This document shows, piece after piece, positions 1,584 to 25,700 of a DNA stretch of 64,000 nt. The position numbers were made by a program, and so were the translations under genes. The notes beneath the pieces were generated by a model, which saw nothing but the letters and a program-made list of their open reading frames with translations, had not been told where the DNA came from and ran no database searches. This stretch comes from Acidimicrobiales bacterium (lineage in GTDB: Bacteria; Actinomycetota; Acidimicrobiia; Acidimicrobiales; Poriferisodalaceae): contig OZ220472.1 in assembly GCA_965115995.1 (NCBI GenBank), positions 3,384,419-3,448,418 on the forward strand. The letters run 5' to 3'. Position 1 is the stretch's first letter. Each line of letters starts with the position of its first letter.

Positions 1584-1727
1584 ATGATGGTCGTGACCTC
1601 TGACGCAACACGAACGGGACGCCTGAGGCGGTTCGGCTCGGCGTCGCTGGCGGTGCTGCTGGTGGCGTCGGTGCTGACGGTGGTGCCGCTTGGGCCACTG
1701 GGCGGTCAGCTGCCGGAGGCGGGGGCG
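1584..1727 (+). other. Sec-type signal peptide of the giant protein (predicted cleavage after AGA, residue 48)
   Basis: MMVVTSDATRTGRLRRFGSASLAVLLVASVLTVVPLGPLGGQLPEAGA|QTAAG. It has a basic n-region (RTGRLRR), a hydrophobic h-region and a small-residue A-x-A-like site. The cleavage position is a guess. Confidence 0.55.
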
Positions 1728-4700
1728 CAGACGGCGGCGGGGGTGACCCTCTCCACTAACGCGATCAGTGTCGGCGAGTTCGGCGGCCATCGCGACGGCA
1801 GCGGTGAGACCTCATACACCATCGTGCTGGACACGAGGCCGACTCATGACGTGGTGATCGGCATCCAGTCCAGCGACACCAACGCCGTGTGGGTAAAGAC
1901 GGGGCCGGGAACAGGAGCGCAAACCGACAACGCGATCACCTTCACCCCGACGAACTGGAACGTTGCCCAGGAGGTCACCGCCCGCGGTCGCAACGACGGC
2001 ATCGACAACACGGACGACAAGCGCACGGCGACGTTCACCCACACCGCGAAGTCCGATGACGCCAGCTACGACGGCTTGGACATCGAGGATGTGACTGTGA
2101 CCGTCATCGACGACGACGACGTCAGGGTGGGCGTCACGCATGTCGACAGCACGAACGATCTGGACGAAGGCAGGTCCTTCGGTTACACGATCAGGCTCTG
2201 GTCGCAGCCGACGCACGATGTCGTTATCACCGCGAAATCCGCGGATTCCGACCGGGTGAAGGTCGGCCCCGCCGGCCAATCGCCGGCGCCTAGCGGCTCG
2301 TACACGGTCACGTTCACGCCATCGAACTGGGCTGCGACACAGATCGTCAGGGTCCGCGGAGTGGCCGACAAGGTTCACAACCTGGCCTTCCGGGAAAACA
2401 TCAACGTCACCCACACCGCCGCGTCCACCGACACCGACTACAACGGGATCGACATACCGACGGTGGTTGTCAGGTTGGAGGACAAGGACGGTGCCTCCGG
2501 GGTGACGGTCACCGAGTCGGGAACCCCGGCGGCCACGGAGGTGAACGAGAGCGGGAGCGGCACTACTGACACCTACACGGTGGTGCTGAAGTCCAAGCCG
2601 TTGAGCGACATCAAGATCTCGGCAACGTCGTCCGCCCCGGGCGCCGCCAAGCTCAAACTGGGCAGCGCAGCGGCCGCCGCCAACGTCACCCTCACGTTCA
2701 AGACGTCGGACTGGAACCAAGCGCAGACCGTCACCGTCGAGGGCGTCGACGACGCCGTCGACAACGCGGACGACATGCGCTCGGTGACGATCACCCACGC
2801 AGTGACCGCAGGCGACGGCGGCAGATACACGTCGGCTCGGCAAATCGACTCGGTGTCAGTGACAGTGAACGACGACAGCGACAAAATCGGAGTGTTGCTG
2901 AATCCTTCCAACCCCAATCTGGGAACAATAACTGAGGGCGCCGTCGGCACTCGGACCATCAGTCTGGCATCGAAACCGCTGGCGCCCGTGACGATCCGTG
3001 TCATGTCGGACAAGCCGGACGTGGCGACTGTGGACCTTCGAGGCGACAACACGCCGGGTGCCCATGAGGTTCTCACCTTCAAACCCGCCACCTGGAACAA
3101 TGGGCAGCTGATCGCTGTTGCCGGCGTCGACGACAACGTCGACAACTACGGGGATCGTTCGGCGACGGTCAGCTTGGCGGTGGTCTCCGGTGACGGCGGC
3201 AAGTACACCACCGACCTGAAGCTCCCGTCCTTACGCGTGACAGTCGGAGACGACGACGAGATCCACCGGTCGGTATTGACCGTTGCGGGGCCGCCGATCC
3301 AGGTGACTTCGCTGGTGGAGCAGAAGAGCAATGGCTCGCGCACCGGGAAATACGAGTTCGCCGCACCGGTGCGGATCACGCTGCCGCGCGAACTGCAATT
3401 CCGCGGTGCCGAACTGTGCGCCTTCGGCACCCCGAATAACAATGACGCCGAGGCGACCAAGCTCGCTCTGGCCGGCGGAACGTGCACTGATGAGTACGAC
3501 TCGGGTGGTGGGCTCGAGACGGTGGGGGCCATCGGCCCGGCGGTGAAGGTGGGCTGGCCCGACACCGGGGTCGAGGTTCTGGGGCTGAAGCGCATCGGCA
3601 CCGGCAGAACGTCGCGCATTATCGGCAGTCAACATGCGGAGGTGCGGCTGCGCTTCACCGGCGCCGCCCTCAAGCAGATCTTCGAACGCGATGTCTGGGC
3701 GGTGGTCCTCGATGTCGGCGGCGTGCTCGTGGAGAACTTCACCCGAACCACTCCAGGTTTCTGCGCGAAGAATCGGAACATCGAAGACGGAAACGACGAG
3801 GCGGGAATAGCCGATTGTCCGTCGCCCTCACGCGGGGTCATCAGCTTCGCCGCCGCCCCGCCGCGGGCCACCTGGGCACTCGACACCACGACGCCTACGG
3901 TTGCCGAAGGCGATGAGGTCACCTTGCGGGTGACGGTGCCCGCCAACAACCTTCCTCGCGACTGGGACCTCGACGTGCCGCTGAAGTTCAGCGGCACGAA
4001 CATCACTGCGGAGGACTATCCGGCTTCGGTGCCGTGCAAGGTTGAGGCACAGCCGACACCACCCGATCCGCCCAAGGCGCTCACCTACGACTGCAAGTTC
4101 ACCGTTCCCACCGACACCAGCAGCGAAGACACCGAGACCCTGGTGATCGAAGTCGACGCCGCCGAGATGGTGCCGCTGGCGAGATTCGTGCCCACCGCTT
4201 CACGGGTGGAGATCGCCATCGAGGACGCCACCCCTGCGTCGGTGACGCTGAGCGTGCCCGACACATATGCCACCGAGAACAGTTTCGTGGATCCGTCGCC
4301 GGCGGTGATCCGGCTCGACGTTTCGGGACCGCTGAGCACTGCGCAGCAGCTCACCGTGCCGCTCGTCATCAACCAGACGCCTTCGAGCGATCCGGCTCTG
4401 GTGGCCGGCACCGACTACCGGCTCGAGTTGGCGCCGACGGCGGGGGTGTCGCTGTCGGGCGCCACGGTGACGTTCGACGGCAGCGGCGGCGACGCACCGC
4501 AGACCGCCGAGATCCGGCTCTACGCACTCGACGACAACGACTACGCCACCGAGAAGCTCACGGTCACCATCCCCGCAGGCGAGTCCGACAACGACCCGAA
4601 CGCCCCGGTGCTCGCCAGCACCGGCTTCCTGCTCAAAGGCGCCAAGGAGGACGTGAAGGGCACCGGCAGCGGCACCATCACCTTCATAGAGGACGACCCG

Positions 4701-7700
4701 AAGTCGGCCGCTCAGGGCGCGCGTTGGGTAACCAGTACAGCGGGAATGAACCGAGGCTGGAAGAACGATTTCACTGAACTGGCCCGCGGGGGGCTCACCG
4801 AGCCGGGCCGTCAACGCTACGGCAAGTCGGGCTTCACCCGCGTCGGCCAGACCGACGTCTTTGAAGCGAGCCTAGGACTTCAGTTCAGATTGGGATATCC
4901 CTCCAGCGGTGCCGATTGGGCACTCTACAGTGGCACGGGCCTTCGACTTGCCGGTACCGGCGACTCCCGCGGCGGGTTCGTCAGCCAGTCCGGCAAGGTC
5001 CTTGCCAGCGACGTGGCGCTCAACGGCGGGGAGGTGACACGCGGCGGCAACACGGTGACCGTTGGCCCGTCCGTCGAACTGCACGACGCCCCCGCCGGCC
5101 TCAGCATCCACAGCATCGAGCGCAGGGCGGTTGATTGGGCGATCGTGACGTTCCGGATGACCGAAGCTGCCATGGACGACTTCCGCGCGCGGCAGGACTT
5201 CTCGGTGAAGGTCGGCGGGATGCTCGTCGTGAGGGAGGACGCATCCCGCCGGGGTGAGCACCCGCACGACGCCAATCTGGCTGCCAAGACCGTGTGCGAA
5301 GAGAATTACGATGTGTCCGAGGTCGGCAAGTGCCGCCCGGCTTACTTCAACTTCAAGCTGTTGCCCGGCGCCAACATCGGCATCGTCGAGTCGGACGATG
5401 CCACGGTGCTCGGCGACACCACCGGCGAGACCGACACCTACACCATCACCCTGGATCAGGCGCCTTCGGCCCAGGTGACGATCACGCCGTCGAGCAGCGA
5501 CAACAGTGTCGTCACCGTCTCGGGACCCCTGGTGTTCAGCCCCTCAGACAGCGGAGCAGCGCTCACCAAGACCGTCACCGTCACCGCGGCCTCCGGCGCC
5601 GACGACAGCACCGACAACCCGGGCGGCTCGCAGCAGGCCGATGTCACCATCAGCCACGCCGTCACCACCACCGCCACTCACTACAGCGGCCTCTCCGTCG
5701 AGGACGTGACCGTCGACATCGTCGACGACGAGCCGACCGTGGTGTCGTTGAAACCGAACTCTCCGAGCGTCGATGTCCCGATGCTGCTGGCAGAGGGCAC
5801 ATCTTCGGGCGGTCCGCGAAGAGTGGCTGCGGAAGTGGATTTGGGCCGTCTGCCGCATCCAGGCGAATCGGTGGATGTCGCGTTCGCTTTGAGCGCGCAG
5901 GGCACCGACGATGACGTGTTCTTCACCGGCTCGGACCGCCGGGTTCAATTGATCTACACCCAACGTCAGAATCGTTGCTGTGTGACGCCCGGCGGGTTCG
6001 AGGGCGGCAGCTCCGCTCCGACCTTGCGCATCGAGGCGAATAACTCCGACCCTCCTCCCAATCAAAAGCAGCTTGTCGTTGTCGCCGTCGTCACGGCGAC
6101 CGACGACGGCGACACCGTTGACGATCATTTCGAGGTGGCGCTGGCGGGCGGCGCCGGGGCGGTGTTCGAGTCGAACTTCGAGGGCGGCGTGGTGGTCCAT
6201 GCCAGCGACCACACGGTGCCGATGACGCTGCTCGACGACGACGCCCCGCAGGGCATCGTGGTGGACACCAAGGCGCTCGAGGTGACAGAGGGCGAGAACT
6301 CCATCGTCAACGTGCGTCTGGCCAACGCGCCTTCCGGCAACGTGAAGGTGGGAATCAACCTGAACGCCGCCTCCGGCAAGGTCACGCTCCCCGCAGACGC
6401 GGTGACGTTCACCGTCGCCGGGGGCGCAGCCCCGTGGTACCAGGCGCAGCCCGTGACCGTCACCGGGGTGGACGACGCCGACTTCTTCGACCACAAGGAC
6501 ATCGACCTGGAGTTCGTGATCAGCGGCGACTCGTCGTCCAAGGTCACCGTGCCCGTCACCGTCGTCGACGACGAGACGCCGACCGGCACCCTGACGCTCA
6601 GCGACGACACCATCTTGATCTCTGACTTCAAGAAGGTGGGCAACAACACCACCGGCTACTGGAGGCTGCTTGTCGACGTGACGCTCGGCGGAGACTACGT
6701 GTTCGCCCGCCAACTGAAGAGCTTCGGAGGTGGCACGGTGTATGGGTTCTTTGATTCGCGGGACTCGGAGATTCGGTTTACGACAGGGGCCGCGTTGGGG
6801 ATTCAGGGCAACTACAACCCTTCGATCGATCTGGTGGGCGCGCCCGACGGGCTGAGGGTTGGCAGCACGACTAGCCAGCAGCCGAACACGTTGGGCATGA
6901 CCGTGCCAGGCCGCGCCGTGACGGGCGGAAACCCCGGCCGGGTAGCGCTCGTGCTCACACCCGCGGCTCGCACGGCGATCACCGAGACAACTGAGGTGAC
7001 GCTGCGGATAGGGAGCTTCCTCATCGAGGGCGTCAAGGACCGCTACGGCAACGCGCCCCCGACCGTGGGTGCCCAAAACGGTCAGGTGCCCAGCCGCGGC
7101 TTGTGCGGGCAGAGCAGGAGCCTGACCGACACCACGGTGTGCCCGCCCGCGGAGGTCACCTTCACGCTGGTGCCGCTCGCCACCGACCCGGTGGACGCCG
7201 AGTGGCTGGCGCTTCCCGACGATCTGACCATCGAAGAGAACGCCGACGGCTCGACCACGGCCGTCAAGGTCGGCACGCCGCTGCGGGCCGTGGACCGCAA
7301 CGGCGACACCGTGACCTACTCGCTGAAGTCGCCGCCCGCCGGCTTCGCCATCGGCAGCAACAACGGCCAGATCAGCTACACCGGCACCGGGCTCGACCGC
7401 GAAGCCCTCACCGACTCGCAGATCACCATCACCGTCGTGGCCACCTCCACCGGCGCCGACGCCAGCGCCACCGGCGTCGAGCAGCAGGCAACGATCACGG
7501 TGACCGACGTGGACGAGGGCGACGCCACGGTGACGCTGCGCGACGACGCCATCGGGCGGGTCGGCTCGATGCTGCACGTCACCGACGTCAGCGGCGACCC
7601 CGACGGCGACCCGGCCGCAGGCGCAATCACCTACCAGTGGCAGACCAGCCGCGACGGCACCAACTGGGCAGCGGCCACCGGCGCCGGAGCGGCCACCGCG

Positions 7701-10700
7701 GCGTACACGGTGGTGAGCGGGGACGACGGCGCCAGCCTGCGGGTGCGGGCCACCTACACCGACGGCGGCGGCAACAGCGAGGAGGTCTTCTCCACCGCCA
7801 CCGTCACCGGCTTCAAATATCCCGGCGCCAAAGCGGCGTTCGCCGTCACCGACAACACCGCCAATGAGGAGTCGGCGGCCAGCACCAAAGCCGAGGCCGC
7901 ACAGTTCACGTTCACGCTCGCCGACAAAGCGAGCCCGGTGGCCGACGAGACGATCGGCTACCACATCGACTTCAGCGGCGGCGCCATCGACGAAGACTTC
8001 ACCCTGGAGCTCGTGCCCGCACAGGGCGTGAGCCTGACCACGCCCACCAAGCAGCAGGCCCGGGTGGTGTTCAGCGCACAGGGAGGCGTCAGGCCAGCGT
8101 CGACCGCCACCGTGTGGCTCAAGGCCCTGGCCGACGACGACAACGCAGCCAACGAGACGATCACCCTCACCCCCGACACGACACTCTTCACCGGCGACCT
8201 CGGGGCGGACGCGCAACTCACCGGTGCCGCGGCGAGCATCACCGTCACCGACGATGACGAGCCTGTCACCGTCACCATGGCCGGCAGCGACGGCGACAGT
8301 GACGGCAACGCGGTGGAGGGCGCCGGCAACGCCACCGGCTACCGCACGGTCACGCTCACGCTGAGCCGAGCGCTCACCGGTATGCAGGCCGTGACGGTGC
8401 CGCTGAGCGTGGCCGGCGCGACGGTCACCACCGACTACACGTTCGCGCTGGCGGGGACGAACACCGGCGTGTCGCTGACCACCACGGGCGGGACGCATAC
8501 GGCGCAGAACCCGGCGGTGGTGTTCGCGTCGGGTGCGCAGACGGCGACGCTGCGCCTCACGCCGGTGGACAACACAGCCCGCACCCAGCCGTACGTGGTG
8601 ATCAGCTACGGCACCGGGGATCGGGCGCCGAGCGGCACCGGCGGCGCCGCCGTGGCCAGCCAGAGCGGCGGCCCCATCGGCGTCGTGCTGGTGGACGACG
8701 AGACGGGCGACATCGAGCTGGCGTTGGACTGGGGGCTCGCTCCGGCCGGGCTGTCGTACGGCGACGACTTCCGGTTGCTGTTCCGCACCTCTGTGGGCCG
8801 CGACGCCACATCGTCGGACATAGCGGTCTACGACGCGTTCGTGCGCGGCGTGCTCGCGCAGGGCGGCCACAGCGACATCAAGCCATATGCCGGGTTCTTC
8901 AAGGTGTTCGGCGGGACTCGCAGCGCGTCGGGCTCGACGGGAACGTCGGTGCGGGTCCACAACGGGCTGGCGACGCGTCATACCGGCCATCTCTCCGGGG
9001 GATATGTATGGGCGGACGGCTCCACCCGGGCGACGGTGGGCAGCACGACGGGTGTTCCCACCTACTGGCTGAACGGCGCGATCCTGGCCAACAACTACGC
9101 CGACCTCTGCGACATCGCCTGGTCGACCGGCAACGGTGTCACCACCGGCTGGGACCGCGATGACCCGCGCAGCGAGGACGGCACGCGCAACGTCCCTGCA
9201 TCCGTGCCCGGCAACAATTTCGGGCCGTACTCGACGTGGACGGGCTCGGGCAACGCCTGTGAGGCGTGGAACAATCCGCTGGGATCCGACACCGTGTCGC
9301 GCTCGGCGGCAGGCAGCGGCGGCGGGCAGACGCTGCTGCATCAACGCGCTGCGGCGAACACGAGGACACACCCGTTCTACGGCTACTCGCCGGTGTTCAA
9401 GCTGTTGGCGAAGCCGCCGGAGCTGACCTTCGGCTCGGCGGCCTTCAGCGGCGCTGAGGGCGACGGAACCATCGACGTCACCGTACGCGCCGACGCTGCG
9501 CCGCGCAGCGCCCTGACGGTGGCGCTGGCGACGACCGCAGGCACGGCGACGGGCGGCGGGACCGACTACACCGCCCCGGCAGCAACATTCACCTTCCCCG
9601 CCGACGTCACCTCGCACACCTTCAGCGTGACCGTCAACGACGACTCGGTCGTGGAGCCCAACGAGCGCTTCGCGCTGACGCTGAGCGCCGGCACGGGCTA
9701 CACGGTCGGCACGCCGTCGTCGGCCACGGTGACCATCGTCGATGACGACGGCCTGTCTGTCGCCATGGTCGCCTCGCACGGCGACAGCGACGGCAACGCA
9801 GTCGAGGGTGCCGGCGACACCACCGGCTACCGCACGATCACGCTCACGCTGGGTCGGGCGCTCGCCGGCTCGGAGACCGTCACGGTGCCGCTGAGCGTGA
9901 CCGGTGCGACGGTCACCGCCGACTACACGTTCGTGCTGGCGGGGACGAACACCGGCGTGACGCTGACCACCACGGGCGGGACGCATACGGCGCAGAACCC
10001 GGCGGTGGTGTTCGCGGCGGGCGCGCAGACGGCGACGCTGCGCCTCACGCCGATGAACAACAACGCCCGCACGCAGCCGTATGTGATCGTCGACTACGGC
10101 ACGGACAGCAGGGCGCCGGCCGCGACGGGCGGCGTCACGTTGGGCACGCCGTCCGGCGGGCCGATCGGCGTCATTCTCGTCGATGACGAGACGGGCGACG
10201 TCGTGCTGCCTGCGGGGGCGAGCTTCCGGCCGACAGGAGTGTCCAAGGACGGCGAGGAGTACCGGATTCTGTTCATGACCTCTGAGGGCGGGCCGGCGAC
10301 GTCGACCGACATCGCGGACTACGACCATTTCGTGCGGGCCTCGGCAATCCGCAACGGCAACGCCGATCTGCTGCCCTACGTCGGGTTCTTCAAAGCGTTC
10401 GTGTCGACCCCGACCGTCGATGGCCGCACCCACGTCGGCATCTGGGACCCGAAAGCCAACAACGGCTCGGGTGCCTACGCCACCGGTCAGGCGATCTATT
10501 GGCTCAGCGGAGACTTGGTGCATGCGAGCTACCGGAGTTTCTGCCTCAGGGAGTGGTTCGGTCGGTGGAATTCGGCGGACGACACCCGCCTGCGCCACCC
10601 CGACGGCGCACAGGGCGACGGCGCGAAGGTGTGGACCGGGATGAACAACAACTGCACGACGAGCTCGGCCCCGCTGGGCTCGGCCGCACCGACCTACGGC

Positions 10701-13700
10701 CCCGGCGCGCAGGCCGGCAGCGGCACCGCATCGAAGGCGCTGTCGCTGGGCACTGAGGGGGCCGGCAACGAGAACCGGTTCTACGCGGTGTCGGAAGTGC
10801 TCAAGACGGTGGCGTCGCCCGCACAGCCGGTGGTGGCGTTCGCAACACGGGCTACTTCGAGCAACGAGGGCGACGATGCGACGTTCACGTTGAATGCCAG
10901 CCCTGCTCCGGCGCAGGACCTGACGCTCTCCTACACCTCGCAAGTCGGCACTGGCGACGAACCAGCGACCGCGGGCGAGGACTTCACCGCTGGCGTCGGC
11001 ACGGTGACGATCCCCGCCGGACAGGCTTCGGCGACGTTCAACATCGCGATCCCCGACGACGACATTTTCGAGACATCGGAGACGTTCAGGATTCTGCTGG
11101 TTCCCTCGCCCGACTATCTGCCCGGCAGCACCCGCAGCTCTGTCGTGACGATCCTCGACGACGACGAGCTCAAGGTGGGCTTCGAGCGGGCGGGGTACTG
11201 GGCGCTCGAGGACAGCGGCAGCATTGATGTCGACCTGACCGTGGATCGTGAATTGGAACGGTCGGCGGAGGTGACCCTGTCGGTGGGCGGCACCGCCACG
11301 CCCGGCAGCGACTACACGGCCCTGCCGTCGACGACTGTGACGATCCCCGCGGGGACCACGACGGGGACGCACACCCTCACCATTCCCATCATCGACGACG
11401 CCGCCGCCGAAACCGACGAGACGGTCATCTTGGAGATCGTCAGCACCAAGCCGGCTAGTCGTGTATCCACCGCGACCCGCGACATGACGACGGTGTTCAT
11501 CGCCGATCAAGACCACATCACGCCCGGCCTCGTCGTGCCGAGCACCGTCGAAGTGGGCGAGGGTGGGGCGGCGACGTATCTGCTGCGGCCTGTCACCGAG
11601 CCGACCGGCACGGTCACCGTCACGATCTCGGGCCAGTCCGACGCCGTGCTGACGCTCGACGCCGACGACAGCGCGAAGGGGGTGCAGGCCTCCGTCGAGT
11701 TCGACGCCTCCAATTGGCACATCGGACGCAGGATCACCGTGAACGGCGTCCACGACAACGACATCGACAACGACACGGTCACACTCACCCACACAGCAGC
11801 AGGCGGCGGATACGCCTCGGTCACCGGCACCGTGGCCGCAACCGTCGTCGACGACGACCTGGTGCAGTGGTGGAAGGCGGGCGGCGACCCTCTGGCAGCG
11901 CCTGAGGCGGTCGAGACGATTGCCGAGGGGGAGAGCCTGACGCTGACGGTGACGCGGCGGAACTCGGCCGGCGCGGTGTCGATCCCGATCGGGGTACAGG
12001 AGGTATCGGCCAAGGCCTCCGACGGCGACTATGAGGCGCCCGCCACCGTCAAGTTCGCCGGCAGGCAGAACGAGGCCACCTACACGTTCACAGCGTTGCG
12101 CGACAACGACACGGCCGAGGGCGACGAAGTGGTGACGATCACCCTCTGCCCCGCAGCAGACTGCCCCGCGCCCTACGGCTCGGGGGCCACGCCGCCGACC
12201 ATCGACGTGACCATCACCGATGGGCCGCGGCCCCACGGCATCTCGGTGAAACCCGCCGCGGCCACGATCGCCCTTGACGAAGGCGCCGGCGACGCAGCCG
12301 TCCGCACCCTGGAGGTGTCGCTGGAGTCGAACCCGACGGTGGCAGCCACCGTCACCGTCACCTCCACCGACCCGGCCGCGGTGACCGTCGACACCGACCC
12401 CAGCACCGCCGCCGCCGAGAGCACCATCACGTTCACACCCGGCACCACCGGCAAAGACGGCGACGGGAACTGGGCCGAAGCGGTCAGCGTCGAGATCGCC
12501 GCGGTGGACGACACCGACCTCGCAAACGAGTCGGTCACGGTGACCTTCTCGGTCGAAGCAGCCAGCGGCCCCTACCACTCGTCGACGTCGCCGCCGGTCA
12601 CCGACGAGACCCGCACCGTCAACGTGACCGACCCGGGCGTCGCGGTGATCGTGTCGGACACCGACCTCAACCTCCGCGAGGAGCGCGGCACCGCCACCTA
12701 CACCGTGCGCCTGGGCACCCCTCCGGCCCCGGGCCGCAGCGTGGAGGTCACCGCCAGCTCGACGGCTGTGGAGCGGGTGACTGTCGGCAGCGCCGTGCTG
12801 AGCTTCGACTCGACCAACTGGAACCAGCCCCAGACGGTCACGCTCACCGGTGTGGACCTGCCGACGCAGACCCCCGTCACCGTTGCCATCACCCACTCGA
12901 TCACCCAGAGCGACGACGTGAGCTACCCCACCACGCTCGCGGTCGACTCGCTGACAGCGAAGCTGTTCCATGCGCCCACCGTCATTTTTGGGTCTGGATC
13001 GGACGCCAATCTCACGGTTGTCGAAGGTTCGTCCATAGACGCCGAGTTGACCGCCTGGCCAGGACCGGACGGACTCGGTCTGCCGGTGACGGTGACGGTG
13101 CGCGAGTACGGCGGCGACCGGATCGCAGCCGAAGAAGAAGGCGAGCGCGTGGTGGTCTTTGAGCCGTGCCCCGTGCTACTGGGGTGCTTCAACGGGTCGG
13201 CCAGGTTCTCCATTCCCACCAACGCGGACAGCGCCGACACTGCCGACAGTCGCGTGTTCATCGCACTGCACGGCGACGCGGGCCCCGGCTACTTGATCGG
13301 AGGCCGTACGTTCTTGGATGCGGTGGTCACCGACGACGATCCGACCACGGTCACCTTGTCGGGATCGGACCGCGTGCCCGACGACGGCGGCGAAGCGACG
13401 ATCACCCTGACGCTGAACCGGGTCCTGAGCAACAATTTGAACGCGGCACCCGCCGAGAAGCTGACGGTTCCGCTCACCTTCGCCGGCGGCACCCTCGGTA
13501 CCGACTACTCGCTGGCGCTGGCCACGACGAACAATCTGGTGACGCTCAACACGTCGAGCCCGCACAGCGCGCAGCACCCGGCCGTGGTCTTCACCGGCGG
13601 GCCCAACAGCGTCGCGACAGCGGAGCTCACCCTCACTGCCATCGACACGGGAGCGACCGCGCCGCTCACGGTGAGCGTGGCGTTCGGCGCCGGCAACCGG

Positions 13701-16700
13701 GCGCCGAGCGGCGCGAACCTCAGTGGCGGCTTCAGCGCATCGGGCAGCGCGACGGCGACCATCGTGCCCGCGGGTGTGACGGTCACCGCGGCGGGCGGCA
13801 GCCTCGAGGTGACCGAGGCCGCCGGAGCGGGCCGCACCGACACCTTCACCGTTGTGCTGACGAGCCGGCCCACCCAGGAGGTGACCGTGGCTGTGGCGGT
13901 GGGCGACCCCGGCGTGGCCACGGTCGACAAGGCCAGCCTGGTCTTCACCACCGGCAACTGGAACCAAGCCCAGACGGTGGCGGTGACCGCGACCGACGAC
14001 AACGTCGACAACCCCGGCGGGAGGCGCACCACCGACGTCGCCCTCACCGTCACCTCGACTGACGCGAGCTACAACGGCCTGAAGGTGGATCCGCAGACCG
14101 TTGCGGTGAGCGATGACGAAGCCACCACAGTGACGTTCTCGGTCACCGACGCCACCGCCGACGAGGGCGCCCCCTCGAACGCCGCCGCTCTGCGCCTGGT
14201 GGTGTCGCGGCCGCTGGAGGCCGGCGAGCGCCTCCAGGTGCCGCTGCGCTTCAGCGGCGCCGACCCGCTGCCGTTCGCGCTCTCGCTGGCCGGCACCCCA
14301 GCCCCCGCCGGAGTGACACTGAACGCGGACGTGACCGATGCGTCGGTGAGGTTCACGGGTTCTTCGGGGGGCAGCGCCACGGTGGCCGACCTCATCGTGA
14401 CGCCGCGGCGAGACGCCGACACCACCGACACCGACATCACCGCTCAGGTCCCCTCGGCGAGCAGCGGCGGCGCCTTTGTGCTGATCACTGCGGTCAACAG
14501 CGTCGAGACGCTGCCCGGCGGGGCCACCGGGCTCGGAAGCTGCTCCGGCGGCGCCTGCTCGGCTCAGTTCACCGTGAACGACGACGGCGTGTCGCAGGAC
14601 GTGTCGCTGTCGGTGGACCGCGCCGCGGTCAACGAGGGCGCCACCGCCACGGTCACCGCCACGCTGCTGGCACCCGCCACGGCGGCCCTGTCGATTCCTG
14701 TGGCGGTGCGTTCCGGCGCCACCGCGTCGGCGGCCGACTACACGCTGTCGAACAGCGGCAGCATCGACATCGCGTCGGGACAGAAGACGGGCACGCTCAC
14801 CTTCACCGCCATCGACGACGCGGCCGACGAGCCCAGCGAGACGCTCACCTTGGAGCTTGGCACCCTGCCCGGCGGCGTCGACAAAGGCACGCCCGACCAT
14901 GTGGCATTGACCATTGTCGACACCGACACCGACCCGGTGATCACCGTCGCCGCCGCCAATCAGGTGCAGATCGACTTCGGCGACCCTCCGGAGTTCGTGG
15001 TGCGGCCGATCACCGAAGGCGCCCCGGCCCGGTTCACCGTGACGGCCACCCCGGCGGTGCAGTACGACCTGCCGGTGACCTTGCGAGTTAGGGAGTTGGG
15101 CTTCGACAGCGACCATGTGGCCGACGCCGATGAGGGCGACGTCTCGGTGGTGATCGCTTCAGGGCAGACGCAGGCGGCCTTCAGCGTGCCGACGGTCGCC
15201 GACGACGACGACGAGAGCGACGCCACGGTCACCGTAGAGGTGCAGGACGGCGCGGGGTACACGGTGGGCGCCTCGACGCTCAACTCGGTGATGGTTCAAG
15301 ACGACGACGCGACCCGCACCGTGTCGGTGACCGGCGGCGGGCTGCTCGTCGAAGGCGACTCCAAATCCAGCGTCGAGGTGATCGTGGAGCTGGCGACGCC
15401 GCTCGCAGCCGGCGAGCATGAGGAAATTCGACTTCACTTCTCCGGCGCCGGAGTGGAGTTCCAGGACTTCGGGATCGCTCTCAAGACGGGCACCGGCATC
15501 AACACCGGAGTCACGCTGCCCTTGAACAACTTCAGGGTGGTCGCCTTCAGCGGTGCCGGGGCGCAGACGGCGGTGTTGGTGCTGACCGCGCGCGACGACC
15601 TCGACACGATCCACGAACAGGTAAAGCTGACGGTGAGCGGCGCACCAGTCGATCCCGCTGCGTCGCAAGTGCTGCTGAGCGTGCTCGACGACGACGCCTC
15701 GGGTGCGGCGGTGCTGGCCTCGGCGACCGAGGTGACGGTGGGCGAAGGCGCCACCGCGTCCTACACGGTGCGCCTGTCGGCTGCGCCCGGCGCGGGCGAG
15801 ACCGTCACGATCACTCCCACCAGCGCGGCGGTCGGCGTCGCCACCGTGACGCCCGCATCGGTGCAGATCACCAGCGCCAACTGGCAGAGCGAGCACCGCT
15901 TCACGGTGAACGGGGTGGACGACAGCACCGACAATCCGGGCCGCGACCCCCGCAGCGCCGTCATCACCCACGCGGTGACCACCACCGGGTCGGTGTACGC
16001 CTCGGCCACCGCGCCCTCGGTGACGGCCAACGTGATCGACACGCAGCCCACCGTGGTGAAGATCGTCTACGAGGGCAAGAACCACAACGCCAGCCCGCCG
16101 GCAGTCACCGAGGGGCAGAACGTGGAGCGCTTCTCGGGCAACCGGACCCTCAAGACCGACGCGCGCGGGTTCGAGGTCGTGCTGAGCCGGCCGCTGGCCC
16201 GCGATGAACGAGTCGAGGTGCCGTTGCGGATCGAGGGCCTCAACATCACCCCCGCCGACATCGCCCTCGATGTGTCTTGGCAGGCGCCGCACACCGAACA
16301 GTCGGAGGGGATCACCGATGAGGTCCGCAACCCGGGGGTGACCCTGCTGCATGCGGGCGTGGTCTACAAGCCTTCGCGAGTCGAGACGCTCGACGAAGAC
16401 TGGCAAGACACCCAACAGATGCGTCCGCGCAGCGAGAAGGCAGTGGTCGCGGTCACCGCGCTCGACTTCGTGGTGGTCTTCGACGAAGCCTCGTTCGGCA
16501 CGCCGACCACCCCGTGGACCGACGCAACCGCGCCCGTGCCCCAGCGGGCCTCGCTGATGTTCAGATTCGTCGACGACAAGCTGGGCGAAGGCCCCGAGCA
16601 GTTCACCGTCACCATCGGCGACGACGCCGAGCTGGCCGCCCGGTCGGGCACCAACCTGGCAGGCGGCGCGGTGCGCGACAGCGCCAACCCGTCGGCCTCG

Positions 16701-19700
16701 GTGCGGGTGAACGACAACGACCCCCACCTGGCGCCGTCGAAGCTGACGGTGGACGTGGCCGAGGGCGGAACGCCGGGCAGCTACACCCTCAAGCTCAGCG
16801 CAGACCCCGGCAACGGCGAGACGGTCACGGTGGACGTGGTCTCCGGCGACAGCTCGGTGGCCACCGTCTCCCCGCAGCAGATCATCTTCACCGGCGGCAG
16901 CGGGGGCTCCTGGAAGACCGCCAAGACGGTGACCGTGACCGGCGTGGCCGACGCGACCTTCGGCGACGACTCCACCGTGATCTCCCACGACATCAGCGGC
17001 TGGCCCAGCGGGCCCAGCACCGGGCCGGGCGTGCTGGTGCAGGTGAGCGACGCCCCGCCGGGGTTCACCGTGACCCAGACCGGCGGCAGCACCAAGGTGA
17101 CCGAAGCAGCCGGCGCCACCAACACCGACACCTACCAGATCGTGCTCGACGCCACCCCGGCCCGTCCGGTGACCGTCACGCCCGTCGCCGGCTCGGCCAA
17201 GATCACCGTGTCGGCGCCGCTGGTGTTCACCACTGCCAATTGGCACAAGCCCCAGACCGTGACCGTGACCGCAGTCGACGACGACGCGGTCAACCCTGCC
17301 GCCGAGCTCTCCACCACGGTCACCCACCAGGTAGCCACCGCCGACAGCAACTACCGGGCCATCGCCATCGCCCCGGTTGCGGTGGACATCACCGACAACG
17401 ACACCGCCGCACTGAAGATCACCGAGTCCGGCGACGCCACCGAGGTCACCGACGACGGCAGCACCGACACCATCGCCGTGAGCCTCGCCTCGCGGCCCTC
17501 AGCCGAGGTCACGGTCACCGTGGCGGTCGTCGAAACCCCGATGACGCAGAATGCGCTGGCTCTCAGCAAGGTGGGCGGCGCGCAGGCCGAGACCCTCACG
17601 CTGAAGTTCGGTCGGTCGACCTGGGACAAGCCCCAGACCGTCACCGTCACCGGTGTGGCCGACAGCTTCGACAACAGCGGCGACCGGGCGGGATCGCTGA
17701 CCATCTCGGCCGCGTCCAGCGATACCGACTACGCCGCCCTCGGCGCCAGCTCGGTCGGCGTGACGATCCTCGACGACGACACTTCCGGGGTCACCATCAC
17801 CCAGACCGACGGCGCCACTGAGGTCACCGACGACGGCAGCACCGACACCTACACGGTGAGGCTGAACACCCAACCACTCGGCCCGGTGTTCATCACCGCC
17901 ACCTCCGACGACGACCGGGCAGCGAGGCTGCACAGCGGCAGCGACACGACGCCGGGGGAGACCGTCCGGCTGACGTTCACTCAGGGCAATTGGCGCGATC
18001 CCCAGACGGTCAGCGTCACCGGCGTCAGCGACGATCTCGACAACCCGGGCGCCGCCCGCAGCGTGACCGTCACCCACGCAGCCACTGTTCCCGATCCCAG
18101 CGACCCCGAGAACGCGCCCGCCAACCCCTACGACGGGATCAAGGTCGCCTCGGTGAAGGTCAGGGTGGTCGACGATGAGGCGCCCGTCGGCATCACCGTC
18201 ACCGAGACCGACGGCGGCACCGAGCTGGCCGAAGACGGCGGCACCGACACGTTCAGCGTCGCACTCGACTCCAAGCCGACGAACAACGTGGTGGTCACCG
18301 TCACGTCCGCGAAGCCCGGCGCTGCCACCGTGAACAGCCCTTCGTCCTCGGCGGGAGCAACGGCCAAGCTCACCTTCACCCCGGCCAACTACGCCAGCGA
18401 GCAGCAGGTGACGGTCACCGGCGTCGACGACGACAAGGACAACGGCGCCGGGCGAATGGTGGACATCACCGTTCAAGCGCTCAAGGCCGACAACACCGAC
18501 ACCCGCTACCAGGGCGTCTCGGGCGACAAGGTCACCGCCACGGTCACCGACGACAACGTCAAAGGCGTGGTGCTGAGCCGGCCCGACGGGCTCACCGTGC
18601 CCGACGGAGATGACGCCTCCTACACCGTGCGCCTCGGATCCCAGCCGCGCCAGACGGTCCAGGTAACGATTCGATCCAGCGACTACGCCCAAGTCACGGT
18701 GAATCCGACCCGCCGCACCGAACCGCTGATTCTGCAATTCACCTCTGGGAACTGGGATGACCCCCAGGACGTCACTGTCAGCACGCGCAATGCCTGCAAC
18801 GCCGCCTCCTGCGAGGTCACGCTCACGCACTCGACGAGGCAGTTCATCGGAACGCCGGTTACCGGCGCCGACGACTACTCAACCGGAACCGTCGCGCAGC
18901 CGTCGCTCACCGCCACGGTCGTCGGCAACGACGTGCGAGCAGTGGTCATCACCGAGACCGGCGACGGCACCGAGGTGGCCGAGGCGGGCACGCCAGACGA
19001 GACCACCGACACCTACACCATCTCATTGACCCGTGCCCCCGCCAGCGGGAACCAGCAAAACCAAGAGCGTGTGCAGGTCTTCGTGGCGGCCTCAGCCGGA
19101 GTGCGGCTGAGCTTCCCCGACAGCGCCCCGTGGGACACGGACCGGCTGACCTTCACCAGCGACAACTGGGCACCCGTCGTGGTGACCGTCACCGGCGTGG
19201 ATGACAGCCTCGACAACACCGGAGGCGCCCGCAGCGTCTCGATCACCCATCGGGTGGTCGTCGTGCCGGAGCGCACGTACGAGTCGGGCTCCGCGGACAC
19301 GATCACGGTCACCGTGACCGACGACGATCCGCCGCCCACCGGGATCGCCCTGAGCGCCTCGCCGGTGAGCATCGGCGAGCGCAACAACCCCGCAAATGCC
19401 CCGGTCACGGTCACCGCCACCGTGCAGGGCGACAGCCGCTTCGACGCCGACCAGGTGGTGCATCTCTCGGTCAGCGATTCGAGCAGCTCCGACGGGAGGG
19501 TGCCGTTCACGCTGAAGCCCGACAATCTGCTGCCCATCGCCCGGTTCGTCAGCCTCGCCGCGGGACGCGCCAGCGGCACGTTCACCGCCATGGGCATTCT
19601 GGTGACCGGCGACAGCGTCGATCAGGCCGACCGGGTGGTGACCATCAGCGGCACCCTCGGGGCCTACACAGTGACCCCGGCGACGGTCACGCTCATCGAC

Positions 19701-22700
19701 AACGACCCCAGCAGCTTCACGCTGGCCGCTGCCGACGCCGCGGTGGCCGAGGACCAGGGCAGCACCGAGGTGACCGTTGCCTACGGCGGCGCCGCCCTGC
19801 CCGCGGGAATGTCGGCGCTGATACCGCTGACAGTCAGCGGCGCTGTGGTCGGCGACCACTACACGTTGGCGCTCAAGAGGGGAAGCGACGGCACACTCGA
19901 CACCTCAGCGCCCTACAGCGCGCAGAACCCGGCGCTGCGCTTCGACGCCGGTGACGCCACAGCCACTCTGGTGCTGACCGCCGTGCCCAACGACGACCTC
20001 GACGACCGCACCGTGGCGGTCGCCTTCGGCACCGGCGCGCAGGCACCGGAGGTCACCGGCTCGGGCGGCGGCGTCTCGCTGTCCGGCAGCCCCGCAGAGG
20101 TGTCCATCACCAACGACGACGCCCACCCCGAGGTGTCGGTGACGGCAGGATCAGCGGTCACCGAGGGTGCCGCGGCGGCCTTCGAGGTGGCCATCGCCAC
20201 AGCGCCCAGCGCCGATGTCACGGTGAACCTCAAGGTGGCCCAGACCGGCAAGGTGGCAGCCGCCGGCGACCTGGGCGACAAGATCGTGGTGATCAAGAAG
20301 GGCGCGACCACCGCGGCGTTCACAGTGCCGACCGTGGGCGACTCCGCCGACGAGCCCGCAGGCTCGATCAGCGTGATCGTCGCCACCGGAAAGGGCTACA
20401 CCGTCGCCTCGTCGCCCGACGACGCCGCGGCAGTCGCGGTGAGCGACGACGACGCCACCAGGGTGACCTTGAAGGGCACCATCGAGGACAGGACCGGTCA
20501 GCGCCTTGTGTTCCTGGCCGAGGGCGTCACCCCCGACACCAGCAAGCTGACGGTCACCCTCGGTCGTGCCCTTCAAGCCGGCGACGTGCTCGAAGTGCCC
20601 CTGCAGGTGGACGGCGGCACGGTGGGCGAGGAGTTCTCGCTGGCGCTGGCGGGCTCGCCTGCGGGTGTGAAGCTCGCGGGCCGGTCGCTCACCTTCACCG
20701 GCTCGGCGGGCAACACCGTCAAAGCCGCCACGCTGGCGCTGACCATGGAGCACGACTCCGACACCACCGACGAGGCGATCACCGTGTCGCTGCCCGCCAC
20801 CTGGCCCAGCGATACGGTCACCTCGGCCGCGACCACCGTCGGCGGCGGGGCGACTGGCACGGGACGCCTCACCTTCCACATCACCGACGACGACGCCTCC
20901 GCGGCCCCCGGCGTGGAGCTGGTGGTGGCGCTCGGCCAGCGCCGCCCCGACGTGGACGTGCGCTGGATGCGCGTCGATGAGGGCGGCACCGGCGCCTACC
21001 GGGTGCGGCTGGCCACCGACCCTGGCGACGCCATCACCGTGGTGGTCACCCCGGCAGTGGGCGACAGTGCCGCAGCGACACTCTCGCCGACCAGCCTCAC
21101 CTTCACCGGAGGTTCGGCAGGCAACTGGGGAACCGCCCAGAAGGTGACGGTGGCCGCAACCCAAGACAACGACAGCGACCATGAGCGCACCGCCATCACC
21201 CACTCGGTGACCAACTACACCGGCGTCGCGGCTGGGCCGGCGCTGAGCATGGTGGTGGTGGACGACGAGGCGTCGGGCACCTCCCTGGAGGTATTCCCCG
21301 CCGAGGTGCCCGTCACCGCCCTCTCGGTGGGCGCCACCGTGCAGGTGGAGCTGGTGCCCTTCGGCGTCTCGTTCGCAGGCGCCGGCGGCAGGGGCGGCAC
21401 CGGGACTACCACCAATCGCAACGCCAACGACCGGCTGTGGAACCCGGCCACCGGCGAGCTGACCGCCGCCGCGCTGGGCCACATCGCGGTCTCGGGCCTG
21501 CCGACGGGGGTGACGGTGACCGCCGGTCGCCTGGTGCGAGCCCACGACCAGGATGATGGGGGAACCACCAAGTCCACCGGCGCTCACGTGGTGCTCGACC
21601 TCTCTGTCTCGGCCGCCGTCGCCAATGCCGACGCCACCGTCACCGTCACTGCCGGTTCCGAGCTGCTGGCGCGCGACGGCAGCAGCGGCGTGCCGTGCTC
21701 TGACCGCAGCAGCGGCAAGTGCGACCCCATCGCCGCAAGCTTCAAGGTGGCGAGGGTCACCCCTTCGGTGTTGGTGATGCCCAGCACCCTGGACCTCATC
21801 GAGGGCGGCGCCGCGGGCGAGTACAGCGTGGTGCTGGCCACCGACCCCGGCTCTTCGGCCACCGCGGTGGTCACCCCCACCTCGGGCGATGTCGGCGCGG
21901 CGACGGTGAGCGGCGCGCTCAGCTTCACCGGCGGCCCGAGCGGCAACTGGAGCGTCCCCCAGAAGGTGACGGTCACCCCCACCGACGACGCTGACGCCGC
22001 CGCCGAGTCGGTGCAGGTGGCTCACACCGTCACCGGCTACACGGGAGTGACCACCGCACCGTCGGTGACGGTGAATGTGGCCGACGACGAGACGCTCGCG
22101 GCCACCGCAACGGTCCCCCAAGCCGGGCTGACCCTCACCGAAGGCCGCGCCGGCAGCTCCTACACGGTGGCGCTGGGCGCAATCCCCACCACCACGGTCA
22201 CCCTCACCGTCACCGCAGGCACGGGCGGCGAGGTGAACAACACGAGCGGCTTCGGCGCCTCGGCCACCTTCAGCTACACCCCTTCGGACTGGGCGGCGCG
22301 CACCGTGAACGTGGCCGCCGCCGACGATGCGGTGGACAACCCGGGCATCGGGCGCACCGTTGCGTTCAGCCACAAGCTCACCGGCGGCGAGTACGCCGGT
22401 GTGGGGGTGGCGGCCGTGACCGCCGTGCTGGTCGACGACGAGCCCACCGTGGTGTCGATCACCGGCGGCGGCGAAGTCGAGGAGGGCGACACTGCCGCCT
22501 CGGCCGAGGTCACCGTCGCCCTCGCCCGAGCGCTCGTGGACGGCGAGGTGGCGGCGGTGCCGCTCGACCTCACCGACGGCTACTCAGGCACCGCGCTCAC
22601 CGTGGCGCTGAAGGGCAACCCCGCCGGCATTGCGCTGAGCGGCGCCGGCACCGACACCCCCGCGGTCACCTTCACCGGAACCTCGGGCCAGCAGGTGCGC

Positions 22701-25700
22701 TCCGCCGTGCTGGTGCTGACCCCGGTGGCCGACTACGACGACGGCGACTCCCGCAACGACCCGGTGACGGTGGCCTTCGGCGACCTGGCCGACTCGAACC
22801 TCGCCACCAACCTCGAAGGCGGCACACAAGCCCACGCCAGCGACACGAGCGCCACCGTCACCATCACCGAGGGCTCGGTGGTGACCTTCGGCGCCGCTGC
22901 CTACACCGCGGGAGAGGCCGCGGGCAGCCGCACCGCGACCGTGAAGGTGAACGCCTCGCCCGCGCCCGAGGCCGATCTCACCGTCGCCTACACCGACAGC
23001 GGGGGCACGGCGGTGTCGGGCACCGACTACACGGCGCTGAGCGGCAGCGTGACCATCGCCAAGGGCGCCACATCGGCCGACATCACCGTCACCGTCACCG
23101 ACGACAACGCCGTCGAAGGCCGCGAGACGATCGAGCTGGCGCTGAGCAGCACCGCCACCGACTACGCCGTCGGCTCGACGGCGTCCACCACCGTCACCAT
23201 CGAAGACGACGACCCCGGGCTGGTGCTCTCGTCTCCCACTCCGACCGTGGCTGAGGGCGGCACGTTCACCTACCAGGTCAGCCTCTCCACGGCGCCCACC
23301 AGCGACGTGGTCGTGACCGTCTCGGGCCAGGGCGGCAGCGACCTCTCCGTCGACACCGACGGCACGCAGGAGGGCGACCAGGACACGCTCACCTTCACCG
23401 CCGCCAACTGGCATGAGCCCCAGACCGTGACCCTGATGGCGGCCGACGACGACGACGCCGACGACGAAACCGTGACGTTGACCTACACGCCGGTGGGCGG
23501 CGGCTACGACTCGGCCGGCGCCCAGGCCCAGGTGAACATCGACGACGAGACCCCGGAGGTGACCTTCGGCGCGGCCACCTACTCCGCCGGCGAAGGGTCG
23601 GGCACCCTCAACGTGGTGGTGGTGGCGTCGCCCGCCCCCACAGCCGATCTCACCGTCGCGTACACCGACAGCGGGGGCTCGGCGGTGTCGGGCTCCGACT
23701 ACACGGCGCTGAGCGGCAGCGTGACCATCGGGGCCAACGCGGGCTCGGCCAACATCGTCGTGGCCCTGACCGAGGACAGCGACCTCGAAGGCTCAGAGAC
23801 CATCGTGCTGGAGCTGGCCGACGGCAACCGATACCAGGTGGGCAGCACTGCCGCCACCACGGTCACGGTCGCCGACAACGACTCCGGGCTGCTGTTCACG
23901 CCTGCGAACGCTGCGCTGTCGGTGACCGAGGGTGCCGGCGCCGAGTACACGGTGCGGCTCTCGACTCGACCGACCAGCGACGTGACCGTGACCGTCTCCG
24001 GGCACGCCAGCACCGACCTCTCCGTCGACACCGACGGCACGCAGGGGGGCGACCAGGACACGCTCACCTTCACCACGTCCAACTGGGACCAGCCCCAGAC
24101 GGTGATGGTTTCGGCCCGCACCGACGGCGACTCCGACAACGACAAGGTCACGCTGACCCACACGGCCGCAGGCGGCGGATACGCGTCGGTGACGGGGACG
24201 CTGGCGGTGACCATCGGCGACTTGTCGGTGGCGGTCGCCTTGTCCGGCTCAGACGGCGACGGCAACGACAACGCGGTGGAGGGCGCGTCGAACGCGACGG
24301 GATATCGCACGATCACGGTCTCGTTGAACCGGGCGCTCACCGGCTCGGAGACCGTGACGGTGCCGCTGTCGGTACACGGCGCAGTGGTGAGCACCGATTT
24401 CACGTTCGGGCTGGCGCCGTCCACCCAGTCGGGCGTGTCGCTGCTCACGGCTGCACCGCACTCGGCGCAGAACCCGGCGGTGCGGCTGGCCGCAGGGGCT
24501 TCGCAGGCGACGCTGCGGTTCACGCCGGTCGACAACGATGCGCGCACTCAGCCCTATGTGGTGGTCGACTACGGGACGGGCAACCGGGCGCCGAGCCACG
24601 CGAACCTGCCGGCGGGGCTGGCCGATCCGGCGGGCGGGCCGCTCGGGTTCGTCATCGTCGACGACGAGACCGGCGACATCGAGGTGCCGGTGAGCTGGCC
24701 GCTGCGGCCAGCGGCCCTGAACTCGGGCGACGTGTTCCGTGTGCTGTACATGACATCTGAGGGCGGCACAGCCGAGTCGTCTGACATCGCGGACTACGAC
24801 GCGTTTGTGCGCAGCGTGGGAGCGCGCAGCGGCATGCAGGCGATCCAGCCCTACGTCGGGTTCTTCAAGGTGTTCGCCAACACCCGCAGCTCTGGTGCGC
24901 CGACGGCCAACGTCGCGGGCCGCGCCCACGTCGGGATGTGGACTTCCAACGCGTGGGCCGACGGGTCGACCAAGGCCGACGATCCGGGCACGCCGATCTA
25001 CTGGATCAGCGGCCGTCAGATTGCCGACAACTACTTCGACTTCTGCGACGGCAACTGGGACAATCGCTGGAGCCAGACCACGAACTATCTCCGCCACGAG
25101 GATGGTGTGAACGCCGACGGTGACAAGGTGTGGACGGGGATGCGGGCGAACTGCACGCTGCACGCCAACCCCTTGGGCCATTCCGCCAACGTGTCGTTCG
25201 CCGCAGGCACTCAGGCGGCCACCCAGGGCCCGCTGCGCAATGGGCAGGAGGCCCCCACCAACACCAACCGGTTCTACGCCATGTCGCCGGTGTTCAAGCT
25301 CACCGGGCCCGCGATCCCGAACGTCTCGTTCAAGCAGCAGGCGATCTCTGCCAACGAGGGCGAGGGCACCGCCAAAGTCACGGTGGTGTTGTCGGACCCA
25401 TCGGCCACTGACCTGACGGTGAGGTACCAGGTTCCGTCGAACTCCGCAGCGAAGGAGGGCGTCGACGTCGAATCGCTGCCGGGCACGCTGACCGTGCCCA
25501 AAGGCACGACCGAGGCCGACATCGAGGTCGTCGTCGTGGACGACAACCTCATCGAAGACTCCGAGTTCTTGAGCATCACGTTGCTTCCGGGCGAGGGCTA
25601 CTTCTTGGGCGCCCGCCGCACGGGCCTCCTCACGATCCTCGACGACGACGAACATCCCGGCGCGGTCAAGTTGAGCGTCGACACAGACACGGTGTCCGAA

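Follow-up and report, generated by a model that had tools for sequence, protein, structure and literature searches.

Six Copies of One Module in a Giant Open Reading Frame

The window analyzed here, i.e., the whole stretch of 64,000 nucleotides taken from contig OZ220472.1 (positions 3,384,419 to 3,448,418, assembly GCA_965115995.1) of an Acidimicrobiales bacterium of the Poriferisodalaceae, contains a giant open reading frame (ORF) in which a module of about 210 amino acids occurs six times. On the plus strand, the frame between positions 1572 and 63998 comprises 20,809 codons with no stop, and it is still open at the window end. Its product ranks among the very large bacterial proteins, is acidic (isoelectric point, pI, 4.1), and has an N-terminus that resembles a Sec signal peptide (MMVVTSDATRTGRLRRFGSASLAVLLVASVLTVVPLG...AGAQT). 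The sixfold recurrence of a module of about 220 residues had been proposed in an original prediction made from the DNA letters alone, and it was borne out: a hidden Markov model (HMM) generated from the six proposed stretches recovered exactly six copies in the giant protein and no seventh, with envelopes within a few codons of the boundaries first proposed. E-values of 2.9e-61 to 3.5e-99 were obtained for the six, compared with E=1 for the match that ranked next. The ORF and the modules are as follows, with the best match of each copy in other metagenome-assembled genomes (MAGs) where one was recorded.

1584..63998, plus strand: giant ORF, stop-free frame with its first ATG at 1584; >20,800 amino acids, unfinished at the window end
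8700..9407, plus strand: module L1; HMM E 6e-85; best match in other MAGs 93%, an ortholog in the Candidatus (Ca.) Poriferisodalis locus L014
10188..10811, plus strand: module L2; HMM E 1.5e-90; best match in other MAGs 87%, an ortholog in L014
24666..25304, plus strand: module L3; HMM E 3.5e-99; best match in other MAGs 92%; the modeled copy, AlphaFold2 predicted local distance difference test score (pLDDT) 91.9, with endostatin as the top fold match
28791..29474, plus strand: module L4; HMM E 2.9e-61; divergent subtype with insertions of its own and no U* domain upstream (U* is described below)
32529..33194, plus strand: module L5; HMM E 4e-98; best match in other MAGs 95%, an ortholog in locus L019
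60417..61040, plus strand: module L6; HMM E 1.6e-80; best match in other MAGs 74%; no Cys

The pairwise identity among the six paralogous copies was 23-49%. Since the counterparts in other MAGs (74-95%) are far closer to the individual copies than their sisters are (at most 49%), we regard the copies as old, individually conserved paralogs. Relatives of the L4 subtype were found in two proteins of the wider family (P0012 and P0017).

Predicted Fold of the Module

The L3 copy was modeled with AlphaFold2 from an alignment of 21 sequences, and an alpha/beta model with a pLDDT of 91.9 and a predicted template modeling score (pTM) of 0.89 was obtained. When this model was compared with the PDB by Foldseek, the top five matches were endostatins from collagen XVIII and XV (1dy1, 1dy2, 1bnl, 1koe, and 1dy0), with E-values of 1.5e-4 to 1.3e-3, a probability of 1.00, and template modeling (TM) scores of 0.50-0.59 by query and 0.61-0.69 by target. 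C-type-lectin-like domains appeared as a long weak tail of matches, with E≥0.5 and about 70 aligned columns, and no match below E 0.1 was obtained in a library of viral predicted structures. The module model is not merely another immunoglobulin-like or Calx-beta sandwich, the outcome that the original prediction had set against its own assignment, as it was alpha/beta and matched endostatin best. These results support a predicted endostatin-type, C-type-lectin-like fold for the module.

Relationship of the Module with DUF1554 and Endostatin

In a Pfam scan, none of the six copies matched a family at E≤1, and at E≤10 no module match was detected in 21 family members, nor in 18 further proteins, some of which are almost all module. 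The hmmscan comparison with DUF1554 (PF07588), Endostatin (PF06482), and Lectin_C that had been suggested as a check gave no match for any copy. NCBIfam contained no model matching the module, and the module profile found no match by sequence among PDB chains at E≤10. For canonical Lectin_C (PF00059), there was no Pfam hit, and the EPN/QPD and WND motifs were not seen in the alignment.

Profile-to-profile comparison gave a different result. A DUF1554 set was collected with a consensus-like sequence that served as bait only; this returned 1,969 hits, and among the 120 hits listed nearly all were annotated with PF07588, often also with PF06482. For endostatin, three sequences were verified against the PDB, and 117 vertebrate endostatin domains were collected. 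When the module profile (510 sequences) was compared by HHalign with 119 PF07588-annotated DUF1554 domains, a match of 97.4% was obtained (E 1.5e-11, 149 columns), and the alignment spanned positions 1-157 of the 158 of DUF1554 and residues 21-206 of the module. The match with DUF1554 was 96.3% for the 21-sequence alignment of the module and 95.4% for the six window copies alone, and the positive control, DUF1554 against endostatin, reached 98.6%. The module gave 0.2% against the Calx domains and 0.1% against the U domains of the same protein, 0.2% against the reversed DUF1554 alignment, and at most 3.7% against ten column-shuffled DUF1554 alignments. Compared with the 117 vertebrate endostatins, it reached 2.5%, and the values obtained with a shallow and a deep profile (2.5-5%) were non-significant; with these values and no hmmscan hit, direct membership of the module in the endostatin family (PF06482) was rejected.

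In the alignment with DUF1554, the module motif FRLLFxTS corresponds to VFVTS, FFKxxxST to FKAWLS, IYWLxGxxVAD to YVRxDGxxVA, and VWTG to VWTGT, so that the motif register said earlier to be shared with DUF1554 and endostatin was recovered. The original assignment of an endostatin/DUF1554 module with a C-type-lectin fold therefore held for the fold and for the DUF1554 profile but not for a direct profile match to vertebrate endostatin. Because the module matches DUF1554 at 97.4% and DUF1554 matches endostatin at 98.6%, we consider the module a remote homolog of DUF1554 and, via DUF1554, also of endostatin. This profile homology agrees with the predicted endostatin fold, and the module family is very probably a divergent, mostly cysteine-free, enlarged branch (about 200 versus about 155 amino acids) of the DUF1554/endostatin superfamily.

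Cysteines and Charge

A conserved Cys pair had been proposed for the module. Aligned cysteines (within DFCD and NCT) are present in L1, L2, L3, and L5, whereas L4 carries two Cys elsewhere and L6 none, and the proposal stands for the first four copies only. When Cys were counted in 504 full-length modules from the 150 best representatives of the family, 305 had none and 178 had two, which in most cases do not coincide with the Cys positions of the window copies; a disulfide Cys signature is, thus, not a feature of the family. The DFCD...NCT pair of the window copies replaces the family consensus DFYD...DGT, and it probably forms a disulfide specific to this sub-branch. The four cysteines of DUF1554 and endostatin, which form two disulfides (C1-C4 and C2-C3), are absent from the module family, and the DFCD/NCT pair of the window lies at other positions. 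The modules have pI values of 4.3-6.0 (family median 4.56), and the corresponding values are a median of 4.31 for DUF1554 and 9.1 for endostatin.

The Module Lies between a U* and a Calx-beta Domain

Local HMMs detected 28 U-type and 37 Calx-type domains in the giant protein. Those flanking the modules are listed here, with U* denoting the U subtype that is associated with the module.

8256..8696, plus strand: U*1, module-associated subtype; motifs GDSDGNAVEG, TGYRT, THTAQNPAV, and RTQPYV
9408..9773, plus strand: Calx-beta domain after L1; Pfam PF03160, E 1e-21
9744..10184, plus strand: U*2; local HMM, subtype identity
10812..11192, plus strand: Calx-beta domain after L2; Pfam E 4e-12
24219..24662, plus strand: U*3; local HMM, subtype identity
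25305..25688, plus strand: Calx-beta domain after L3; Pfam E 9e-12
29466..29864, plus strand: Calx-beta domain after L4; Pfam E 5e-12
32085..32525, plus strand: U*5; local HMM, subtype identity
33264..33575, plus strand: weak Calx-beta-like domain after L5; Pfam E 0.08-0.14 (sub-threshold), detected by the local Calx HMM
59973..60413, plus strand: U*6; local HMM, subtype identity
61047..61418, plus strand: Calx-beta domain after L6; Pfam E 6e-21

Both flanks agree with what had been described before, i.e., a shared domain of about 140 residues ahead of five of the six copies and a Calx-beta domain behind five of the six: the upstream domain, of about 147 residues, is missing only at L4, and Calx-beta domains above the Pfam gathering score follow L1 to L4 and L6. 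L1 and L2 had been seen as a tandem pair with one Calx-beta domain in between; this domain is there, but the U* that belongs to L2 also intervenes. The five U copies that precede a module shared a mean identity of 63% with each other and of 30% with the other 23 U copies, and since they form a subtype of their own, the pairing of U* with the module is considered specific. As the usual unit of the giant protein is a U domain followed by a Calx domain, the module represents an insertion between the two.

The U* domain gave no Pfam Calx-beta hit, only weak matches to SWM_repeat and Big_5 (E≥0.016). When the 28 U copies were compared by HHalign with the 37 Calx copies found alongside them in the giant protein, the match was 96.7% (E 4.2e-10, 75 columns); judged from this profile alignment, the U domain is a divergent relative of Calx-beta, and the earlier description of the upstream domain as Calx-like was appropriate, though the domain falls outside the Pfam Calx-beta model. 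An AlphaFold2 model of the three-domain cassette, based on seven sequences, was poor (pLDDT 47.6), and U* is all-beta in this low-confidence model.

The segment ahead of L4 (28320-28790, about residues 8916-9073 of the ORF) is not a U* domain. It contains Cys, has no Pfam match (…CELTDTIDFPDNEDKLPKELVEFCHMVDS…), and is seemingly unlike the rest of the fiber.

A Large Family in Sponge-Associated Lineages and Beyond

A word-indexed protein search retrieved only 18 relatives of the module, suggesting a rare family, and this impression was overturned by an exhaustive HMMER search, which returned 6,372 representatives (clusters at 50% identity) at E≤1e-3, of which 1,720 reached E≤1e-30. The family proteins often have 1,000-7,600 amino acids, with up to 14 module copies per protein. 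The arrangements include direct tandem arrays (MMM and MMMMMM, where M is the module), a unit of Calx, module, and 100 amino acids that is repeated 14 times, and modules spaced about 200 amino acids apart; fn3, cadherin, cadherin-like, and Calx-beta domains are the partners. In at least five proteins (P0004, P0005, P0007, P0009, and P0011), only 2-5 residues separate the signal-peptide cleavage motif from the start of the module, which thus forms the N-terminal tip of the mature chain; large cadherin/fn3/Calx-beta proteins come next, read in the same direction. Two of these five "small" proteins are N-terminal fragments of far larger gene tracts, one of which encodes cadherin, fn3, and Calx-beta domains, while the other gave only a weak cadherin match.

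When the contigs of one genome per GTDB species were scanned with the L3 cassette (600 amino acids) as the query, 39 loci were detected. The best two, 87% and 86% identical, belonged to MAGs named Ca. Poriferisodalis sp. and Ca. Aldehydirespiratoraceae, and further loci were found in Ca. Poriferisocius, Ca. Spongiisociaceae, and other Acidimicrobiia. Outside this class, the cassette was present on megabase-scale Dehalococcoidia contigs and on a 110-kb Rhodothermales contig, as well as on short contigs binned as Gammaproteobacteria and Ca. Multivorans (Acidobacteriota), for which, given their length, mis-binning is possible. A copy of the L1 type, 71.5% identical, lies on a 1.87-Mb Dehalococcoidia chromosome (locus L026, OZ243973.1), and the L1-Calx-U*-L2 spacing of 1.49 kb is conserved in the Ca. 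Poriferisodalis locus L014. From such sequence similarity, it is likely that the gene, or parts of it, has been exchanged between symbiont phyla. In genomes of sponge-symbiont Poriferisodalaceae (formerly TK06) and of the Aldehydirespiratoraceae genus UBA11606, Calx-beta, fn3, and cadherin domains have been reported to be enriched when compared with free-living relatives (PMC11706023).

In related long-read MAG contigs (locus L001 on an ERZ25070917 contig, and loci L041-L043), the giant homologs were called as strings of short ORFs on the same strand, e.g., of 395, 366, 218, 311, and 581 amino acids. Several apparently small secreted homologs are, in fact, N-terminal fragments. These strings of ORFs could stem from frameshift errors or from genuine pseudogenization.

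Other Features of the Giant Gene and Its Surroundings

A Pfam scan of the 20.8 thousand residues detected only Calx-beta domains, one He_PIG match (at about residues 3214-3308 of the chunk 44772-59771), and weak cadherin matches, and most of the length of the protein had no Pfam match. The G+C content across the window is 64-72%, and numerous long minus-strand ORFs were found, all of them wholly within the giant plus-strand frame; with such a high G+C content, they were read as the usual by-product. An assembly or frameshift artifact was ruled out by the open frame of 62 kb and by the module orthologs of 74-95% identity in independent MAGs. A hypervariable C-type-lectin target of a diversity-generating retroelement was discarded as well, since there were no Mtd- or TvpA-like fold matches and the giant ORF fills the window from 1572 on.

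Kilobase-scale super-repeats lie within the giant gene, at about 34000-37000, 43300-46500, 49000-52200, and 61900-63900, with a nucleotide identity of 76-98% and spacings of 9231, 5727, and 12360 nucleotides. They encode U-type and Calx-type domains rich in V, A, and G, show a GC skew of +0.23 to +0.27 and an AT skew of about -0.3, and represent an assembly hazard; they point to a recent history of duplication within the gene or of gene conversion. Upstream of the giant ORF, a plus-strand ORF of 232 amino acids (431-1129) encodes tandem charged repeats of about 14 residues (ERAAEREADLAKRA...) with a hydrophobic helix at the end, and its product may be a coiled-coil, membrane-anchored protein.

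Discussion

The DUF1554/Len proteins show the same motif order as the module (VFVTS, FKAWLS, YxxxDGxxVA, DLxDG, VWTGT, and LYxxE), and both are acidic and found in secreted or surface proteins. The module is about 50 residues longer than DUF1554, with a further strand at the N-terminus and an insertion behind the FFKxxxST strand, and it occurs in 1-14 copies within proteins of thousands of residues that contain Calx-beta, fn3, and cadherin spacers, whereas Len proteins are single-domain lipoproteins of about 200 amino acids. Endostatin is the best structural match, linked to the module by sequence only through DUF1554; it is a single, basic, heparin-binding C-terminal domain of a metazoan collagen with two disulfides, whereas the module is acidic and lacks both disulfides. 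At the level of the whole protein, the giant Ca2+-dependent adhesins of marine bacteria are fibers of Calx-beta, cadherin, or immunoglobulin-like repeats with ligand-binding inserts. Like the protein described here, those adhesins are long acidic chains of beta-sandwich repeats broken by globular domains, and the secretion signal together with the Calx-beta domains would imply that Ca2+ makes the chain rigid. Unlike them, this protein belongs to a host that is probably a monoderm actinobacterium and has inserted heads of predicted endostatin fold. The 3' end of its gene lies beyond the window, as do the C-terminal anchor and any signals for a secretion system.

Based on this anatomy, we propose that the giant ORF would encode a secreted, acidic fiber of >20,800 amino acids, built mainly from beta-sandwich domains (28 of the U type and 37 of the Calx type), with the module inserted between a dedicated U* and a canonical Calx-beta domain. 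The fiber would act as a surface adhesin, stiffened by Ca2+, in an acidimicrobial symbiont associated with sponges, and the six long-diverged modules would be the heads that bind ligands; the component of the host matrix or cell surface that is recognized probably differs from one head to the next. The analysis shows the domain anatomy, the predicted fold, the remote homology, and the taxonomic neighborhood of the module, whereas we infer the secretion, the anchoring, the Ca2+ dependence, and the binding function or ligand of this fiber. Calx-beta domains bind Ca2+, and it is for this reason, and because of the pI of 4.1 of the giant protein, that a Ca2+-stiffened adhesin is put forward. Endostatin binds matrix and cell-surface ligands, and its heparin binding is arginine-based. 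Laminin, fibronectin, and factor H are ligands of the Leptospira Len/DUF1554 proteins (PMC2063517; PMC2387172), and recognition of host components by the module would parallel this. The modules are taken as putative binding heads because the members of the superfamily that have been studied bind ligands, because the module is found at the tip of the chain in other proteins, and because the paralogs have diverged and are yet conserved; copies that are 74-95% identical to their counterparts elsewhere and 23-49% identical to their sisters fit with distinct, retained specificities. A surface adhesin with the modules as ligand-binding heads, domain identity included, seems to us a moderately probable reading, and the chances that the modules adhere to host matrix appear evenly balanced.

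Several observations weigh against this proposal. The module lies below the Pfam thresholds for DUF1554 (PF07588) and Endostatin (PF06482), and the cassette model, with its pLDDT of 47.6, is uninformative as to the presentation of the module. Of the six copies, five are located deep within the fiber and not at its tip, and the most conserved motif of the family (VDARDNT, ADDYxDFYDGxWD) is partly decayed in L1 and L2. Since the module is acidic, the arginine-based heparin-binding mechanism of endostatin is not transferable to it. In addition, that the window itself comes from a sponge symbiont is presumed from the names of its relatives.

Some of these data would also fit a structural or self-association element, in which the module would serve fiber-fiber or cell-cell cohesion, as in a microcolony or biofilm matrix, and not the recognition of host ligands. 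The tandem arrays (MMM, MMMMMM) and the C-M-spacer units repeated up to 14 times resemble scaffold blocks, the conserved positions are mostly Gly, Pro, aromatic, and buried hydrophobic residues, and the window copies are internal to the fiber in five cases out of six. However, all studied representatives of the fold class (endostatin, Len, and C-type-lectin-like domains) function in ligand recognition, the module stands at the extreme N-terminus, right after the signal peptide, in several proteins, and old, strongly diverged copies have been kept individually across genomes, which is unexpected for interchangeable spacers. Cohesion is, in our opinion, a rather unlikely primary role.

The structural matches raise a further explanation, namely that the module is a eukaryote-like mimic captured from the collagen XV/XVIII endostatin of the animal host and manipulates host signaling, e.g., integrin-dependent phagocytosis. 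Metazoan endostatins are the best structural matches, the relatives occur in sponge-symbiont lineages that are enriched in eukaryote-like domains (PMC11706023), and close copies in MAGs of different phyla speak for mobility. Nevertheless, the module profile matches bacterial DUF1554 (97.4%), no relationship with vertebrate endostatin was detectable in this way (2.5%), the module has neither the four cysteines nor the basic charge of endostatin, and DUF1554 is widespread in free-living bacteria, e.g., Myxococcota and Thermodesulfobacteriota. For these reasons, the ancestry of the module is considered bacterial and old, and recent capture from the host is quite improbable; functional mimicry of the host is a separate matter and may still occur. 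The least credible option is that the module uses its C-type-lectin-like scaffold to bind a cofactor or to act as an enzyme on matrix polymers, in the manner of formylglycine-generating enzyme. C-type-lectin-like folds do include enzymes and the conserved acidic cluster (ADDYxDFYDGxWDxE) could bind metal, but no such enzyme or other enzyme structure was among the fold matches, no Pfam or NCBIfam enzyme match was obtained, the family has no invariant Cys, His, or Ser, and the cluster is lost in L1 and L2.

The adhesin with ligand-binding heads is, therefore, the interpretation that we retain. The structural call of the original prediction, made from the sequence alone, was correct, and its functional reading of the modules as putative ligand-binding heads appears reasonable. 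Bacterial endostatin-like domains are already known from the Leptospira Len proteins, and the searched open-access literature on DUF1554 consists almost only of Leptospira papers. In the same literature, no paper was found in which sponge symbionts are connected with endostatin or DUF1554, and nothing similar, including endostatin-fold heads, came up when giant Calx-beta adhesins of such symbionts were searched for. New here are a large, cysteine-free branch of the superfamily for which no family model exists, the display of several copies of it in giant fibers, its dedicated Calx-like partner, and the finding that it is concentrated in MAGs of sponge-associated lineages belonging to several phyla.

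Sponge symbionts are surveyed for eukaryote-like and adhesion domains with Pfam (e.g., PMC11706023), and the module is invisible to such work, even though this family of >6,000 clusters at 50% identity adjoins the very domains, Calx-beta, fn3, and cadherin, that such surveys find enriched. The module family extends the barely studied DUF1554 superfamily, and the set of modules collected here is material for a new family model, with which thousands of dark regions in giant bacterial proteins could be annotated. Speculatively, the unmodeled, cysteine-free branch may be a major adhesion or host-recognition module of the symbionts of sponges and other marine invertebrates, invisible to Pfam surveys and passed from one phylum to another (Acidimicrobiia and Dehalococcoidia, with Acidobacteriota, Gammaproteobacteria, and Rhodothermales as further possible participants); diversified sets of it on giant fibers would bind specific components of the sponge mesohyl matrix and would in this way determine the retention and tolerance of the symbionts. 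The link with DUF1554 and endostatin provides a testable hypothesis for how extracellular symbionts may attach to, or be recognized in, the animal matrix.

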